Notes: generated by a model from the sequence alone, not told the origin. DNA of 64,000 nucleotides from Roseburia hominis (GCA_021771815.1 JAETOE010000015.1:3778-67777), one strand, 5' to 3'; positions 6,575 to 12,143 are shown, counted from the stretch's first letter. Program-made: numbers and translations.

Positions 6575-6755
6575 CTCCTTCTATCGACATTGGTACGCGC
6601 TCGCGTTTGCGTACCGCTTGTATTTTATCACATATATTGCCGATTCGGATAGTTCCTTTTGCCATGAATTACATATTTTATGAAAATTTTAGGAAAATTG
6701 CGCCCCTTCTCTACTTCACCGGCACAGTTTGAACCTGAGTTTTTTATCTGCGGTC

Positions 6756-6783
6756 TTGATTTTCGTTTCTGTAGTGCTATAAT
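6756..6783 (+). promoter_or_regulatory. sigma-A type promoter for tRNA-Val
   Basis: TTGATT (6756-6761), 16-nt spacer, TGCTATAAT extended -10 (TATAAT at 6778-6783). The tRNA starts 9 nt downstream. Confidence 0.6.
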
Positions 6784-6792
6784 TATTGTTAT

Positions 6793-6866
6793 GGAAGCAT
6801 AGCTCAGCCGGGATGAGCGTTCGCCTCACACGCGAGAGGTCACGGGTTCGAGCCCCGTTGCTTCCA
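6793..6866 (+). tRNA. tRNA-Val (anticodon CAC), no encoded CCA
   Basis: Hand-folded cloverleaf: acceptor GGAAGCA/TGCTTCC, D arm GCTC/GAGC, anticodon stem TTCGC/GCGAG with loop CTCACAC, T arm ACGGG-TTCGAGC-CCCGT, discriminator A. 74 nt. Confidence 0.9.
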
Positions 6867-7022
6867 TTTTTTTATTCTCAATTTGGCCCGGTTGTCTTTT
6901 TTTATCTTGCCTGATTGCGTTTACATTCTTTCGGTATATTTCTTATTTCGTTTCATCCAATTCATTCATAAAACGCATCTTATATTTTAAGAAATCTTCA
7001 AGATCCATTAATATATGAAATA

Positions 7023-7450
7023 CTAATGCTCTGCTTCAAATTCTTCGCGTGTTTTCGGCAGACTATCTTTCTGAATGCTTTTGAAAACTTCGTTTAATCG
7101 CTCCATCTGCTTTTTTGGGTAATTCCGTTCATTTATATAACCTGTCAAATACAGCATATACTCTGCTACCATCTTTGCCTGAACCGGCATTGTTCGAATC
7201 TTTTTCATTTCATAATGCAGATTATGCAAAATCTGACATTGGCTTTGCCGCATCTCAAAATATAGTATTCAGAATGCGAATGAAAGGTATTGCTTTGATA
7301 TTCGTATGCTTCCCTGATGCAATTCTGAATATCTTTTTCAAGAGCACAGAGATCATCCCAGACATTCCGCTCCATTTCTTTATTAGACAAATAGGCAGCA
7401 AGCGCGCCTATGATCAACTGCAGACGGTTTTCTACAGATTTCATATTCAT
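7023..7450 (-). pseudogene. hypothetical gene split into two overlapping frames (81-aa and 76-aa ORFs), probably frameshifted
   Basis: ORFs 7205-7450 and 7023-7253 overlap by 49 nt in different frames. AT-rich. No recognisable domain. Confidence 0.35.
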
Positions 7451-7493
7451 AACAATATGCTTTTTGTGGAAAAATATATATCATTTTTCAGAA

Positions 7494-7750
7494 ATGGCTA
7501 ACAAAACATTTCTCACATATGATGAGCAAATTAAAAAACTGGAAAAAGAAAAACAGCTTGTTATTTCTGATCCTAAATTTGCCAAAATAACATTGCAAAA
7601 ACTAAGCTATTTTTCATTAATTGACGGATATAAAGATTTATTTAAACATAAGCCATCAGGGAATTACCTACATGGTGTCACCTTTGAAGAAATTGCCGCC
7701 TTTTATTACTTTGATGAAGAATTGAGAACTCTCTTTCTTAAATACATATT
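7494..7750 (+). pseudogene. 5' fragment (about 85 codons) of an Abi_2 (AbiD/AbiF-like) abortive-infection gene
   Basis: MANKTFLTYDEQIKKLEKEKQLVISD..LSYFSLIDGYKDLF..FEEIAAFYYFDEELRTLFLKYIL matches the N-terminal pattern of Abi_2-family proteins, which are normally about 300 aa. Similarity ends near 7750, where antisense sequence of another truncated gene begins. Confidence 0.6.
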
Positions 7751-7852
7751 ACCCTTATCGAAGTCAATCACAAGTTCCTTGCCAGCCATATCCGTCATAG
7801 CAACCGCATTCCTGCTGCCATCATAATGATACACCATATAGTTTAATGTCAT
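7703..7852 (-). pseudogene. orphan 5' end of an unknown gene (MTLNYMVYHYDGSRNAVAMTDMAGKELVIDFDKG..) truncated at the junction with the Abi_2 fragment
   Basis: ATG 7852 follows GAGGTGAG, immediately after the displaced rlmD tail. Only about 34 codons precede the point where the frame runs into antisense Abi_2 sequence. Confidence 0.3.
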
Positions 7853-7864
7853 ATGCTCACCTCG

Positions 7865-8173
7865 CTACACCATCCCAAAATGCTCCAGCGCATCCTTTAT
7901 CGCTTTTTCCTTCTCCGCCGGACACTGAGGCTGTCTGCTATCTTCCGACTTCAGCAAATTATAATTCTCCCCGACCTTTATTCCACACTTCCTCTTTACC
8001 TGTGAAATATACAGATTAGACACCTTCACTCCATGCTCTTTCAAGGCATAATCCTTAATCTACGCATAAGTCGCCCTACTCTCCGCACTCATCGCATCGA
8101 GCTCGTCCAACTCCAATTCACCTTCAACATAGTCATCCGCTTTGCGTTGGGACAAGAGAACAACCATCTCCAC
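7865..8173 (-). pseudogene. displaced, diverged second copy of the rlmD 3' end plus tail, with an in-frame TAG
   Basis: Translation VEMVVLLSQRKADDYVEGELELDELDAMSAESRATYA*IKDYALKEHGVKVSNLYISQVKRKCGIKVGENYNLLKSEDSRQPQCPAEKEKAIKDALEHFGMV* parallels the last 115 aa of the intact rlmD ORF. The stop is at 8060-8062. Confidence 0.75.
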
Positions 8174-8209
8174 GGTATTACCTCTTTCCCACAAAATTGA
8201 AAAGGCTTT

Positions 8210-8986
8210 TTACCTTTTAATTCTTAAAAGTTCTGGTGCAGTCATAATGTCTAATTTTTCTTTACCAATAAATTTAAGAAACTCAAAAATAATTTCTTCA
8301 ATATTTTTCTGCAAATCATTTATTTGTTTCTCTAAATCTGAATTCTCTCTGATATATTTTGAATAAACCGTCTTGACAACTTCCGACAATTCAAAAGTAT
8401 GAATACATAGATACCTATCTATAAAATATGCATTTATATTTATTACCATGGGCGTCGTGTTCAATTGCATTTTACATTTATTCTCTGCAATCGTTTCAAG
8501 ATAGATATTCCAATTCGCCTGTTCTGGCGTACAATGACTATAGGCATTTAATGACGTTCTAATCATTTTTCTGTATTCAGAACTGTTCGCATTATCTGAA
8601 TTTGAGTCAAATGTCCATATTTTAGCTGCATCACTACTTTTTAGTTTACCTTTATTCCACTTTATCGCAGCATTTCCATTAATTCCCACAGCTGCAAAGC
8701 AATCTGTGGCATCCTCTATGGCACGCAAAAGAGTTATTGCCGATGAATGAAGCCCTCTACAATTTATCATCCCTACACTAGCCATCAATCCTAAAAGGTG
8801 TGTTAAAATTAGTGCACTCGCCGATTTTGATTCAATTGTATTCGCAACTGTTTCTGGCTTAGCTTCGGCGAAATGCCAAGCAAGCTTTAGCATTTTTTGT
8901 ACAGGGCTTTTCTCTCCAATAATATCTGAAAATGGTTTCTGTAATTGATTACTCATATATGCATTCTTCCCTATTTTATTCTTCAT
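8210..8986 (-). CDS. hypothetical all-helical 258-aa protein (possibly AbiV/DUF5677-like), last gene of the KilA-N cassette
   Basis: Intact ORF overlapping the KilA-N stop by 11 nt. Motifs LLRAIEDATDCFAAV ... W.KGK ... RTSLNAYSHCTPE recall DUF5677/AbiV-type proteins, from memory only. An alternative start is ATG 8956. Confidence 0.55.
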   Translation of the reverse strand: MKNKIGKNAYMSNQLQKPFSDIIGEKSPVQKMLKLAWHFAEAKPETVANTIESKSASALILTHLLGLMASVGMINCRGLHSSAITLLRAIEDATDCFAAVGINGNAAIKWNKGKLKSSDAAKIWTFDSNSDNANSSEYRKMIRTSLNAYSHCTPEQANWNIYLETIAENKCKMQLNTTPMVININAYFIDRYLCIHTFELSEVVKTVYSKYIRENSDLEKQINDLQKNIEEIIFEFLKFIGKEKLDIMTAPELLRIKR

Positions 8987-9830
8987 GCCGACTTATAGCA
9001 AATTTCGGCAAATTATTTAAACTTACTGTTTCCAATGTCTGTAACTGCTGCACTGCTAACTGACGAAGTAATTCCATTCGTTCTTTTTGACTTTTTCCCT
9101 GATTAATCAAAACTGCATTATAACTTTCTAGATTCGCAAGCACTAATAACTGATTCAGCGTTGCCACATCCCGCATATTTCCTTTTTCAGTTGGATTTTC
9201 ATCTTTCCACTGCTTTGCTGTTTGTCCGAACAAAACAACATTCAACATATCTGCTTCATTAGCATAGGTATACGCCACCTGTACGGGCGTTAATTCTGGC
9301 GGAATCAAATTTTCTTTAATTGCATCTGTATGTATCCTGTAATTCAACTTAGAAATTTCTCTATTCAAATTCCAAGTCAAAGATAACCGACTGTTTTCGT
9401 CTGTCTTTAAACGTCTGTAGTCTTTCATAATATATAGCTGAAACTCAGGAGAAATCCAGGTTGCAAAGGACATAGCAATATCACTATGAGCATATGTTCC
9501 GCCATAGCGTCCTGCTTTTGAAACAATACCGATAGCATCTGTCGCTTCTATCCATTTCTTGGGTGACATTGTAAAAGCATTCGCTCCAGCCTGCTTTTTA
9601 AACCCCTCGAATTCGAGGGGTTTAAAATTTGGATTATGTAACCTTTCCCACAGTCCCAAAAATTCTATAACATCCCGATTTCTCATCCAGTTTTGAATAA
9701 CCGCCGTCGGGTCATCGCTCTTATACCGGGCAATATCTGTCAATGAAATAAATTCATTTTCAAAATCCTGCGTATAAATTCCAATATCTATTCCATTTGC
9801 ATGGATTGTGTCTTTAATCATTTTCCCCAT
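8976..9830 (-). CDS. KilA-N domain-containing protein
   Basis: FISLTDIARYKSDDPTAVIQNWMRNRDVIEFLGLWERLHNPNF..GRYGGTYAHSDIAMSFATWISPEFQLY is the characteristic KilA-N/Bro-N-like DNA-binding module, followed by a helical C-terminal half. Start set at ATG 9830, which follows GGGAGG. The track ORF starts at GTG 9869. Confidence 0.85.
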   Translation of the reverse strand: MGKMIKDTIHANGIDIGIYTQDFENEFISLTDIARYKSDDPTAVIQNWMRNRDVIEFLGLWERLHNPNFKPLEFEGFKKQAGANAFTMSPKKWIEATDAIGIVSKAGRYGGTYAHSDIAMSFATWISPEFQLYIMKDYRRLKTDENSRLSLTWNLNREISKLNYRIHTDAIKENLIPPELTPVQVAYTYANEADMLNVVLFGQTAKQWKDENPTEKGNMRDVATLNQLLVLANLESYNAVLINQGKSQKERMELLRQLAVQQLQTLETVSLNNLPKFAISRHEE

Positions 9831-9882
9831 TGTTCCTCCCGCAATCACATTATAATCTTTTGGAAACACTTAATTCTCTTTT

Positions 9883-10176
9883 TTAAGAATCTTCTACTGA
9901 ATAACTACCCTCATCTTCCCACATTTCCCGATATGCTTCAATATAAAGCTTAATGCAGCCAGGGTATATATACAAATATCTTCTACACGCCCTTTTATAC
10001 AATTCCAATATTTTTTCATCACAAGCAAAATCCAATAAATAATCAAGCAAATGCGACAATTCATCTTCTGACACGGTTCTGCTACACACATCTTCAACCA
10101 ACGGCAAATAAATCTCATAGGCTTTCTGATGTATTTCAACTATCCATCCTGCAATCTGATAGATCCTTTCATCCAT
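9883..10176 (-). CDS. small acidic hypothetical protein (97 aa), first gene of the KilA-N cassette
   Basis: The ATG overlaps the rlmD stop (TAATG at 10174-10178). 21 Asp/Glu against 10 Lys/Arg. Predicted helical. No recognisable domain. Confidence 0.55.
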   Translation of the reverse strand: MDERIYQIAGWIVEIHQKAYEIYLPLVEDVCSRTVSEDELSHLLDYLLDFACDEKILELYKRACRRYLYIYPGCIKLYIEAYREMWEDEGSYSVEDS

Positions 10177-12143
10177 TAAATCACCTCAAAATATTCAAGA
10201 GCATCTGTTATCGCTTCTACCTTTTCTTTCGGTGGATGCTTCCTCGGATGTTTTAATTCTTCTGCCATATTAGGAGCATCATACATTGTTAGTCCCAAAG
10301 ACCTTTTCACCTCTGCAATATACGCAGTATGTACTTTAAACCCATATTTCTTCTCAACATATTCCTGTATCATTTTATATGTGATTTTCGGTTTCGGCTG
10401 ATATTTCTTCGCTCGCTCCGCTATTGTATCCAGCGGCACCTTGCCCTCACCCTCGCCAAATTCCACTTTTACATTAATAACACTGTCTGGTGATTTGTGG
10501 GACAAAAGTACAATAGTTTCCACATGCACCGTATGTCCAAACTGATCCACCGCTCTCACCCTCTTAATTTCATATCCCCCGTCGCAAAGCACCCGCAGAT
10601 CCCTCGCCAGTGTTGCCGAGTCGCAGCTCACATACACGATCCGTTCCGGCGCCATCTTAAGCATCGTCTCAAGACACTGTACATCACAGCCCTTCCTTGG
10701 CGGGTCTACGACAATGACGTCGGGATGGCGCATGTCCGCTCCGGCAACTTCCTCCGCTGCATCTCCGCTCAATGCGCCTGCTGCACCTTCCATCTTTCCG
10801 GCTGCATCTTTCTGCTGTCCTGTCTTACCCGCACGCTCATAGAACTCCGGCAGAACCTCCTCCGCCTTGCCGACGAAAAACTTCGCGTTCATAATGCCGT
10901 TTAGCTTGGCATTATTTCTCGCGTCCTCAATTGCCTGCGGAACAATCTCCACGCCGTAGACCATTCCTGCCTTCTGCGCCAGAAAGAGTGAAATCGTTCC
11001 GATGCCGCAGTAGAGATCCCAGACCGTCTCCTTTCCGGTCAGCCCCGCATAGTCGAGCGCAAGGCTGTAGAGCTTCTCCGTCTGCACCGGATTCACCTGA
11101 TAAAAAGACTGCGGGGAAATATGGTACGCAATCGCTGTGTCCGTAACGCGAAATTCTTCCACTGTTTCGGAAGAAATCTCCCGCGCGCCTTCCCTTCCAT
11201 ATACCTTCCCGCCGTCTGTTTCCTTTCGCACATCCCCATCCGTGCGCTCTTTCTCCCGCAGAGATGCATTCGCAGAAACATTTGTTCCACACTCCCGCAG
11301 ATGAATATAATCCGTAATATACGCCTGCCCCCAGATTGTTTCCGTTTCATTTCCAAGAATTACATTTGTATTTTTCGAATTAAGATTAACAGATATGCTT
11401 GTCATCCCATCTATCCGGCACAACTTTTCCACCAATTTCTCCTGTGCCGGAAGCTTCTTTCCGTTGATGACAAGACAGACCATGAATTCCTTCGTCGTAA
11501 AGCCATAGCGGATGAGAACATGGCGTATCAGCCCTTTTCCTGTCGTTTCATCGTAAGGCATCACATGATTTTCATTCATATAGGAGAGCACACAATCCAG
11601 TATTTCCTTATTTTCCGGTACGCCGAGCTTACAGTCCGACACGGGAATAATGCTGTGTGTGCGCGACGCGTAAAATCCTGCAATGATCTTTCCGTTCCTG
11701 TCCATGCCAATTGGAAACTGTGCCTTATTGCGGTAACGGTATGGGTGCTCCATCCCAACGATAGGCTCCATCACTCCATCCACAAATTCCGGTGCAAAGC
11801 CGCCGATCCGAATCAGATTGCCACGCACCTTATTCTGCTTAAAGCGAAGCTGCTCTCCATAATCCATCGCCTGAATCTGACAACCGCCGCAGCGTGCATG
11901 AAGCGCACATTCCGGCTCTGTACGCCGCGCGGAAGGCTCAATAATTTCCTCCACACGCGCGTAGCCGTAATTCTTCTTAAGCTTCGTCACACGCGCCCGG
12001 ATGACATCACCAATGACGGCGTCTTTCACAAAAAAGGTCATGCCCTCATATTTCCCGATTCCTTCCCCGTCAACGCCCATATCCTCAATTTTCAATTCTA
12101 TAATGCTGTTTTTCTCCAACATGGTTTCTCCCTGTACACTCAT
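10176..12143 (-). CDS. rlmD: 23S rRNA (uracil-C5)-methyltransferase RlmD/RumA with a 107-aa C-terminal tail and two low-complexity inserts
   Basis: TRAM domain (IELKIEDMGVDGEGIGKYEG), Fe-S Cys cluster (CALHARCGGCQ), SAM motif (DLYCGIGTISL), catalytic region VDPPRKGC..VYVSCD. The usual C-terminus ..HVETIVLLS is followed by an extra 107 aa encoded at 10176-10499. Confidence 0.9.
   Translation of the reverse strand: MSVQGETMLEKNSIIELKIEDMGVDGEGIGKYEGMTFFVKDAVIGDVIRARVTKLKKNYGYARVEEIIEPSARRTEPECALHARCGGCQIQAMDYGEQLRFKQNKVRGNLIRIGGFAPEFVDGVMEPIVGMEHPYRYRNKAQFPIGMDRNGKIIAGFYASRTHSIIPVSDCKLGVPENKEILDCVLSYMNENHVMPYDETTGKGLIRHVLIRYGFTTKEFMVCLVINGKKLPAQEKLVEKLCRIDGMTSISVNLNSKNTNVILGNETETIWGQAYITDYIHLRECGTNVSANASLREKERTDGDVRKETDGGKVYGREGAREISSETVEEFRVTDTAIAYHISPQSFYQVNPVQTEKLYSLALDYAGLTGKETVWDLYCGIGTISLFLAQKAGMVYGVEIVPQAIEDARNNAKLNGIMNAKFFVGKAEEVLPEFYERAGKTGQQKDAAGKMEGAAGALSGDAAEEVAGADMRHPDVIVVDPPRKGCDVQCLETMLKMAPERIVYVSCDSATLARDLRVLCDGGYEIKRVRAVDQFGHTVHVETIVLLSHKSPDSVINVKVEFGEGEGKVPLDTIAERAKKYQPKPKITYKMIQEYVEKKYGFKVHTAYIAEVKRSLGLTMYDAPNMAEELKHPRKHPPKEKVEAITDALEYFEVI

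Follow-up and report, generated by a model that had tools for sequence, protein, structure and literature searches.

The 3′ end of rumA (rlmD) is a documented insertion hotspot in Firmicutes (PMC4120198, PMC4701971), as the original prediction for the locus discussed here had stated. The target of the vanG and ICE-r elements (ICE, integrative and conjugative element) is a GA dinucleotide within rumA, in the 11th codon counted from its 3′ end (Srinivasan et al. 2014, PMC4120198). Their left end, a reading frame of 101-115 codons without a start, becomes fused to rumA, and their right end is a serine recombinase gene without a stop, fused to the displaced rumA codons. The same study describes tandem arrays at rumA, with examples in Roseburia intestinalis. 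Furthermore, the attachment (att) site lies within the integrase gene, and integration reciprocally swaps the 3′ parts of rumA and of the integrase gene (Ambroset et al. 2016, PMC4701971). Here we analysed a stretch of 64,000 nucleotides of Roseburia hominis (GCA_021771815.1 JAETOE010000015.1:3778-67777; “the window”), in which rlmD is followed by two such tails, A and B. The host organism, a Roseburia-like bacterium of the Lachnospiraceae, occurs in rat and mouse gut metagenomes. The 2,350 bp from 10519 to 8170, hereafter unit A, consist of tail A, orf97, a KilA-N gene, orf258 and a 25-bp right arm. Unit A is probably a cassette of the cis-mobilizable element (CIME) type, devoid of its own recombinase and stacked on an older remnant, element B, at the rumA/rlmD site of large serine recombinases (LSRs).

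The rlmD open reading frame (ORF; 10176-12143, minus strand) continues past ..HVETIVLLS for another 107 amino acids to a TAA, and a second, colinear copy (VEMVVLLSQRK...EHFGMV, 7865-8173) carries an in-frame TAG at 8060-8062. The original prediction had described two homologous copies of the rlmD 3′ end, about 2.35 kb apart, and its coordinates were right. Aligning 7865-8173 with 10176-10523 confirmed that the tails are related (32% identity, 56% positives, BLASTP E 4e-17), and equivalent positions are exactly 2,350 bp apart. The similarity had been thought to begin at the octamer TTGTCCCA (10498-10505 and 8148-8155). It begins 14 nt upstream of it, at the GTGGA of the V-E codons, and the DNA common to the tails reads GTGGA..(.)TTGT.CT.TTGTCCCA. 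The pattern GTNGARNNNNTNGTNNTNTTGTCC has exactly two matches in the 64 kb, both at tail starts, with a mean of 0.22 in shuffled sequences, 4 of 100 of which also reached two. The GC content is 29-40% across approximately 6600-10400 and 50-55% in the flanks.

Comparison with the 80 best related rlmD loci (L numbers below designate fetched loci) indicates that both tails came with mobile elements and that neither is native to rlmD. Most RlmD proteins in these loci end 2-13 residues past HVE. Tails of type A were found in about a dozen and tails of type B in about ten of them, several with stops or frameshifts. The RlmD of L001, whose body is 82% identical, ends in HVESVILMQYNANSVRIGKEKK followed by a stop, and that of L003 in HVETVCLLSNRNAKLDTM followed by a stop. 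These two, L005 and many others have no tail at all, and thus provide the empty sites which the original prediction had proposed to look for. At the DNA level, homology to L001 runs at 86% up to window position 10519 and then stops. Tail A, on the other hand, is 91-93% identical in L042, L040, L004, L025 and L035, the RlmD bodies of which are only 54-62% identical. Tail B is 52-64% identical to intact RlmD-fused tails in L066, L006, L069, L048, L046, L038 and L009. The second copy had originally been taken for the old, displaced rlmD 3′ end, which neither tail is.

The proteins to which tail A is joined point to its source. The tail region alone, used as query against a set of 5.8 billion proteins, gave thousands of matches, of which the best 120 were inspected. 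These (86-95% identity) were joined either to RlmD-type methyltransferases or to LSRs, about 40 of them being Resolvase/Recombinase/Zn-ribbon proteins of 650-690 amino acids. Three unrelated recombinase bodies, of 663, 666/667 and 690 amino acids, carry the tail. In the tail-A proteins inspected the fusion junction is always (H/T)VE followed by T(I/V)V(L/C)LSHKSPDS, and in the DNA, what all copies share starts directly behind GT(G/C/T)GA, be it on RlmD or on any of the three LSR types. Because tail A is conserved across genera beyond RlmD and is joined to either RlmD or LSRs, the tails are, in the excised form of the elements, the swappable C-termini of rumA-targeting LSRs, in agreement with what has been published for the vanG and ICE-r elements.

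Tail A also matches phrog_27283 (E 3.7e-10), and its ratio of nonsynonymous to synonymous substitutions (dN/dS) is 0.03-0.06, at a dS of 0.6-1.9, as calculated without the LSR-fused copies L081, L085, L086 and L088, whose alignments were off by one codon. Tail A is therefore maintained as a protein, even in units lacking a recombinase; about 25 bp would suffice for a half-site alone. Any function of this protein would be a putative one. In L015 (~9620), L049 (~11431), L012 and L060, RlmD ends at an early stop or frameshift inside recognizable tail-A or tail-B sequence, and therefore tails appear to be often pseudogenized once fixed.

The junctions agree with a GA-targeted insertion into the rlmD 3′ end. 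Homology to L001 ends at 10519, the tail-A blocks follow GTNGA, and in relatives native ends of 10-13 codons stand after single units. The site in rlmD forms an imperfect palindrome, TTTGGACA ... GA ... TGTCCCACAAA. On the other side of the unit, TTTTGTGGGAAAGAGGTAATACC, directly followed by GTGGAG, stands immediately before tail B and repeats the half-site TTGTCCCACAAA in inverted orientation. Around GA, the right arm TTTTGTGGGAAAGAGGTAATACC thus faces the left half-site with TTGTCCCA as its inverted repeat. The right arm has a single match in the window (8172-8196), with 0.00 expected. The crossover would therefore be placed at the GA of the HVE codons (10520-10519 and 8170-8169), although we infer the exact 2 bp. 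The octamer TTGTCCCA, 14 nt from this GA, had been described as the shared core, and is better read as the outer (distal) motif of the recombinase half-site. With the junction at GA and the swapped tail, the proposal of a site-specific insertion which brings its own replacement 3′ end is nonetheless well supported. The features of the locus are given in Table 1.

Table 1. Features of the rlmD locus and of the two stacked units, in window coordinates.
Feature	Position	Strand	Basis
rlmD/rumA host-derived body (TRAM domain and U5-methyltransferase), to the crossover in the HVE codons	10520..12143	-	Pfam PF05958, PF01938, PF13847
Left crossover dinucleotide GA (putative), within GTG GAA (V-E codons)	10519..10520	-	start of the shared tail-A block; published GA target
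Tail A: P′ half-site (TIVLLS codons), start-less 107-codon tail in frame with RlmD, stop	10176..10518	-	
orf97, acidic protein of 97 amino acids, start overlapping the tail A stop (TAATG); backbone gene	9883..10176	-	
KilA-N domain protein, 284 amino acids from ATG (open frame reaches a GTG at 9869); backbone gene	8976..9830	-	
orf258, sole cargo gene in the variable slot	8210..8986	-	
P arm, TTTTGTGGGAAAGAGGTAATACCGT: right-end half-site of the cassette, inverted repeat of TTGTCCCACAAA	8172..8196	-	
Right crossover dinucleotide GA (putative)	8169..8170	-	junction anatomy; in Dorea sp. 5-2, another tail follows here
Tail B: left end of the older element, now a pseudogene, TAG at 8060-8062	7865..8168	-	
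orf48, orphan ORF of 48 codons after tail B	7706..7852	-	
Abi_2/AbiD gene, truncated; decayed cargo from the older element(s)	7410..7826	+	

The right arm made it possible to find the other ends of such units. A scan of contigs from one genome per species placed it in at least 119 positions, 80 of which were fetched. In 46 of these 80 loci the arm is the 3′ end of an intact LSR gene, of a fourth recombinase type with 552-578 codons that ends in ..VRKVLWE(R/K)GNTVE. Thirty of these genes are fused to short native RlmD ends, eight to tail B, and two to tail A. Another 25 of the 80 loci have no LSR. In these, the open frame measures fewer than 24 codons, and TTTTGTGGG is the exact point from which they resemble LSR genes. 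The same 25-bp arm also precedes the displaced tails in L085 and L081/L083, behind a different upstream gene. A regular expression for serine-recombinase N-termini had matched nowhere in the 10 kb that follow the tail-bearing rlmD loci, which first suggested very long elements. This idea was rejected once the right-arm scan showed that the units end within 2-5 kb.

Mapping from tail-A starts (tblastn) to the next right arm delimited complete units of 1.9-4.9 kb in the window and in at least 15 other genomes (L004, L025, L035, L040 (=L109), L042, L077, L081-83, L085 (=L125), L086/87, L099, L118, L130, L131, L139 and L154). All of them carry orf97 and the KilA-N gene, and none a recombinase. The part corresponding to window 10523 to 9001 is conserved at 80-89% nucleotide identity among units. 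The similarity stops at the KilA-N stop and returns at the right arm, and in nearly all complete units this interval is occupied by a single co-oriented gene. In eight complete units a short native RlmD end comes straight after the arm, such as VETIALLQKRAK in L040, VESIVLIQRKDS in L099 and VETVVLIQKKYR in L154, each closed by a stop. These are clean single insertions from which the empty site can be read. LSR-bearing elements lie directly upstream of cassette units in L081, L085, L086, L091 and L159.

A copy of the KilA-N gene, orf258 and the right arm, 98.6% identical at the nucleotide level to window 9827-8148, is found in Dorea sp. 5-2 (L105), where the right neighbour of the block is tail A instead of tail B. 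Because of this near identity next to another right neighbour, the unit appears to have moved recently between genera, as a block ending at GA.

Two tail-A units do carry an LSR, L102 (4.9 kb) and L140 (6.2 kb, with ParA/ParB genes), and both lack orf97 and the KilA-N gene. Among the units examined, none combined an LSR with this backbone. In L140 (motif-relative -7489 to +80), rlmD with a tail-A-like tail is followed by a 77-aa ORF, ParA, a ParB-like gene, a surface-protein fragment and finally an LSR ending in VLWERGNTVE. This unit is probably a heavily deleted ICE which still holds its integrase, and possibly a relative of the helper of the cassettes. In the metagenome contigs L081/L083 (7961-12001 in L081), a prophage with holin and amidase genes ends in tandem LSR genes of 675 and 666 amino acids. 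Tail A of a resident cassette is joined to the second of these genes, and another, partly decayed cassette follows. The two samples have different cargo genes, 380 aa and TIR-like in one and 307 aa in the other.

The genes of unit A form one co-oriented string. The orf97 protein is found after tail A in every complete unit, at 75-88% amino acid identity and with a dN/dS of 0.09-0.28, and gave no family match in Pfam, PHROG or PADLOC. The KilA-N protein matches PF04383 (E 7.9e-19), phrog_2657, annotated as “transcriptional regulator” (E 4.5e-54), and, over profile positions 3-268 of 281, the PADLOC candidate PDC-S22 (E 2.6e-133), these being annotations by family name. Its dN/dS is 0.04-0.09 (L081, L085 and L086 were excluded from the calculations for both genes), and its stop overlaps the start of orf258. 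Inside its coding region (..FKPLEFEGFK..) lies a perfect 32-nt palindrome, TTTTAAACCCCTCGAATTCGAGGGGTTTAAAA (9596-9627), which is 100% conserved in units of other genera (L105, L099, L109, L040). In gut metagenome contigs the palindrome forms a sharp spike in depth and is therefore common to many organisms. Within the cassette, it may serve for protein binding or for processing.

The cargo gene orf258 likewise found no family in Pfam, PHROG or PADLOC. A protein search returned homologues in 61 clusters, the few source-named ones being hypothetical proteins of Firmicutes, and several His, Cys and Asp residues are invariant. A homologue with 83% identity also stands behind orf97 and KilA-N in another metagenomic contig. 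The AlphaFold2 model is helical (predicted local distance difference test score, pLDDT, of 77; predicted template modelling score of 0.77), and a fold search of this model against the PDB gave no match below E 0.4. We also considered that orf258 might be a degenerate recombinase fragment and rejected this: the alignment is gappy, with 22% identity and a pairwise E of 6e-5, and the zinc-ribbon cysteines are missing. Its position in the variable slot is what suggests a role in defence. In the other units, this slot contains mostly genes matching defence or candidate-defence models, namely PDC-S14 (GIY-YIG and DUF4357), PDC-S21, DUF3644/HEC-08/PDC-S64, a TIR-like effector, AbiN, and a ResIII helicase resembling PbeA/type IV restriction enzymes, as well as DUF4062, which matched in Pfam only and not in PADLOC.

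These findings can be combined into the following scenario. Elements of this kind carry attP, the attachment site of their excised form, inside their own integrase gene, and integration thus swaps 3′ ends: RlmD gains the tail of about 100 codons, and the integrase the last 11 or so codons of RlmD. Element B would have integrated first, left tail B behind and then decayed, as seen from the TAG in its tail and the truncated Abi gene. Unit A would have integrated afterwards, between rlmD and tail B, presumably by virtue of the likeness between the tail-B start and the end of rlmD. The two tails mark two insertion events, in line with the serial insertions at one site that had been proposed for this locus. 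Integration and excision of the cassettes would depend on the LSR of a co-resident or adjacent ICE or prophage, and each cassette would carry one gene, usually an anti-phage gene or a candidate for one.

Several observations weigh against this scenario. There is no LSR in the 64-kb window, where tblastn with five LSRs matched the two tails only; the absence of a recombinase had already been pointed out for the insert. Nor does the window contain, further on, a third half-site, another right arm or a native rlmD 3′ end, which leaves the array without attR. For every member of the family, mobilization in trans or in cis by an LSR is a prediction, and the conserved architecture could stem from one ancient deletion. 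The structure model of tail A is poor (pLDDT 60.6, four helices). Finally, in five gut metagenomes from different studies which hold the organism, the arrangement was identical, and no assembled contig skipped the unit or contained a joint, although contigs drop rare variants. Three raw-read runs from mice (2026) were without the organism. The array thus appears fixed in this species, with no sign of present movement, and in the absence of a helper none would be expected. A minor contig from one rat gut metagenome (run X1) joins a related tail-A block, at exactly 10523, to a different upstream sequence, and lacks 9832-10362, that is, most of the tail and the orf97 region. This contig represents a variant of the unit, belonging to another organism of that sample.

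The most serious alternative is plain decay. Unit A would then be the 2.35 kb left by internal deletion of an autonomous ICE or integrative and mobilizable element (IME), would never have moved in this form, and its likeness to the other units would reflect the shared ancestry of the parent. The missing recombinase and the uniform arrangement in all metagenomes examined are compatible with this, deletion of ICEs and IMEs to CIMEs is the accepted origin of such remnants (PMC5704250, PMC7563491), and ragged remnants of LSR or rlmD ends do occur at neighbouring loci (L077, L041, L086). However, decay does not easily explain why the same 25-bp right end, with the same break base, is found in 25 loci with unrelated upstream cargo, nor the eight clean single insertions. 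Moreover, all of the complete orf97/KilA-N units, at least 15, are free of LSRs, while the LSR-bearing L102 and L140 are free of orf97 and KilA-N, and a nearly identical copy in another genus has a different right neighbour. We therefore regard decay as unlikely. The original prediction had left it open whether the insert is a remnant or was mobilized in trans. A cassette mobilizable by a helper LSR is the reading that the family favours, and “remnant” falls short for a unit which, with its 25-bp right arm, is a complete member of a cassette family and more than debris.

Alternatively, the KilA-N protein, the orf97 protein or both could be an unrecognized recombinase or transposition factor, moving the cassette without an LSR. 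Both genes are indeed present in every complete unit and under purifying selection, and orf97 has no known family (Pfam, PHROG, PADLOC). Nevertheless, an LSR attP is split between the two ends of the unit, the right arm being identical to the 3′ end of an LSR gene and the left arm being an LSR tail. Furthermore, KilA-N is a DNA-binding domain, annotated in PHROGs as a transcriptional regulator, and no catalytic motif is recognizable, which together make autonomous movement quite improbable.

Still less probable is a variable island kept by homologous recombination between conserved flanks, without any site-specific step. The region downstream of rlmD does vary among relatives and is rich in defence genes, as such an island would be, but the junction data contradict it: rlmD genes with no more than about 55% identity have their boundaries on one and the same dinucleotide, LSR genes take the place of rlmD next to the same blocks, and the native rlmD end is precisely restored after single units. 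A local duplication of a C-terminal domain native to RlmD might be read from the tail being in frame and under purifying selection, but is already refuted by the tail-less closest relatives, by a conservation across genera far above that of RlmD, and by the fusions to recombinases.

Because no further half-site, right arm or native rlmD end follows in the window, element B is a stump, the array ending without a right-hand attachment site. Its Abi gene fragment matches PADLOC AbiD (E 2e-20) and PF07751 (E 5.7e-12), the latter at profile positions 2-54 of 184 only. The orphan orf48, which the original prediction had seen as the mirror image of the 97-aa gene behind the active tail, has no homologue in 209 fetched loci and may be a truncated remainder of that element's first gene. 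From tRNA-Val (6792-6867) to tail B, window 6868-7862 consists of broken genes, all of low GC, including two overlapping ArAE_1_C gene fragments at 7023-7450. In the body of RlmD itself, there are low-complexity inserts rich in Gly, Glu and Lys, at 11160-11290 and approximately 10700-10830 (e.g. ..REKERTDGDVRKETDGGKVYGREGAREISSETVEEF.., ..GKTGQQKDAAGKMEGAAGALSGDAAEEVAGAD..), the first of which breaks the DNA homology with the closest relative, L001.

Beyond this locus, the exchange of C-termini explains the over-long RlmD proteins, and the “recombinase family proteins” with the same C-terminus, of gut Firmicutes. It also offers a mechanistic reason for the position of the KilA-N family PDC-S22 beside defence genes, as the backbone of a cassette with defence genes in its variable slot. 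The slot is a place to seek new anti-phage genes, orf258 being one candidate. We tentatively propose a wider picture, which we consider possible and short of probable. In gut Clostridia, widespread and hitherto undescribed recombinase-less cassettes may parasitize the rumA-specific LSRs of ICEs and prophages, forming a modular exchange of defence genes at rlmD. The tail might be under selection because it is donated to the helper integrase, or to RlmD, and influences recombination. KilA-N (PDC-S22) would then be a regulator of the backbone and not a defence effector, and orf258 a new anti-phage gene. If helper recombinases do move the cassettes, these would be a serine-recombinase counterpart of CIMEs or of integron cassettes. 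With their right arm of some 25 bp, they would also be a natural minimal substrate for a family of large serine integrases, enzymes that attract interest as tools for genome engineering.

Insertion at this site, fusion of the tail and stacking had all been reported before (PMC4120198, PMC4701971). Of recombinase-less rumA cassettes, or of KilA-N cassettes, we found no description in the literature searched, which left out most subscription journals. The closest published counterparts of unit A are the LSR elements targeting rumA, namely vanG, ICE-r, ICESp2905, ICE_Spy2096_rumA, IME_SpnAP200_rumA and CTn5 of C. difficile 630 delta-erm (PMC4120198, PMC4701971, PMC5704250). Unit A shares with them the GA in the HVE codons, about 11 codons from the rumA stop, the start-less tail of about 100-115 codons on RumA, the imitation of the RumA end, the stacking, and an occurrence in Roseburia. 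Unlike them, it has no integrase gene but only the last 25 bp of one (8172-8196). It has no conjugation, mobilization or phage module either, its genes being orf97, KilA-N and orf258 only, and it measures 2.35 kb as opposed to 10-100 kb. Its orf97 and KilA-N backbone was not seen in the LSR-bearing tail-A units examined. The intP/attP of phage Mx8, as cited in PMC4701971, resembles the rumA system in that attP lies inside the integrase gene and integration alters the integrase C-terminus. It differs in having a tyrosine integrase, another host and target, and no known recombinase-less derivatives.

Integron gene cassettes are similar to unit A in being small, mostly single-gene, co-oriented and without a recombinase of their own, and in being stacked at one entry site and read from upstream. 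In integrons, however, the tyrosine recombinase IntI acts on folded single-stranded attC. No IntI is present in the window, where the sites are serine-recombinase attP halves, there is no resident integrase at the entry site, and the unit has two extra backbone genes.

By the definition of PMC7563491 and PMC5704250, unit A qualifies as a CIME, because att sites flank it, it carries cargo, and genes for recombination or transfer are missing. The CIMEs of streptococcal ICE and IME families, for example of ICESt1/3 at fda and at the tRNA-Lys, rpmG and rpsI sites (PMC7563491, PMC5704250), are likewise att-flanked, without recombination and transfer genes, loaded with cargo, and found alone or stacked, and their movement, too, is expected only with a helper. 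Their size of 1-13 kb (PMC7563491, PMC5704250) includes that of unit A. Those CIMEs, however, lie at tyrosine-integrase sites and have been treated as sporadic products of decay, whereas unit A lies at serine-recombinase sites and belongs to a family with a conserved three-part backbone under selection and a variable slot for one gene, spread over many genera.

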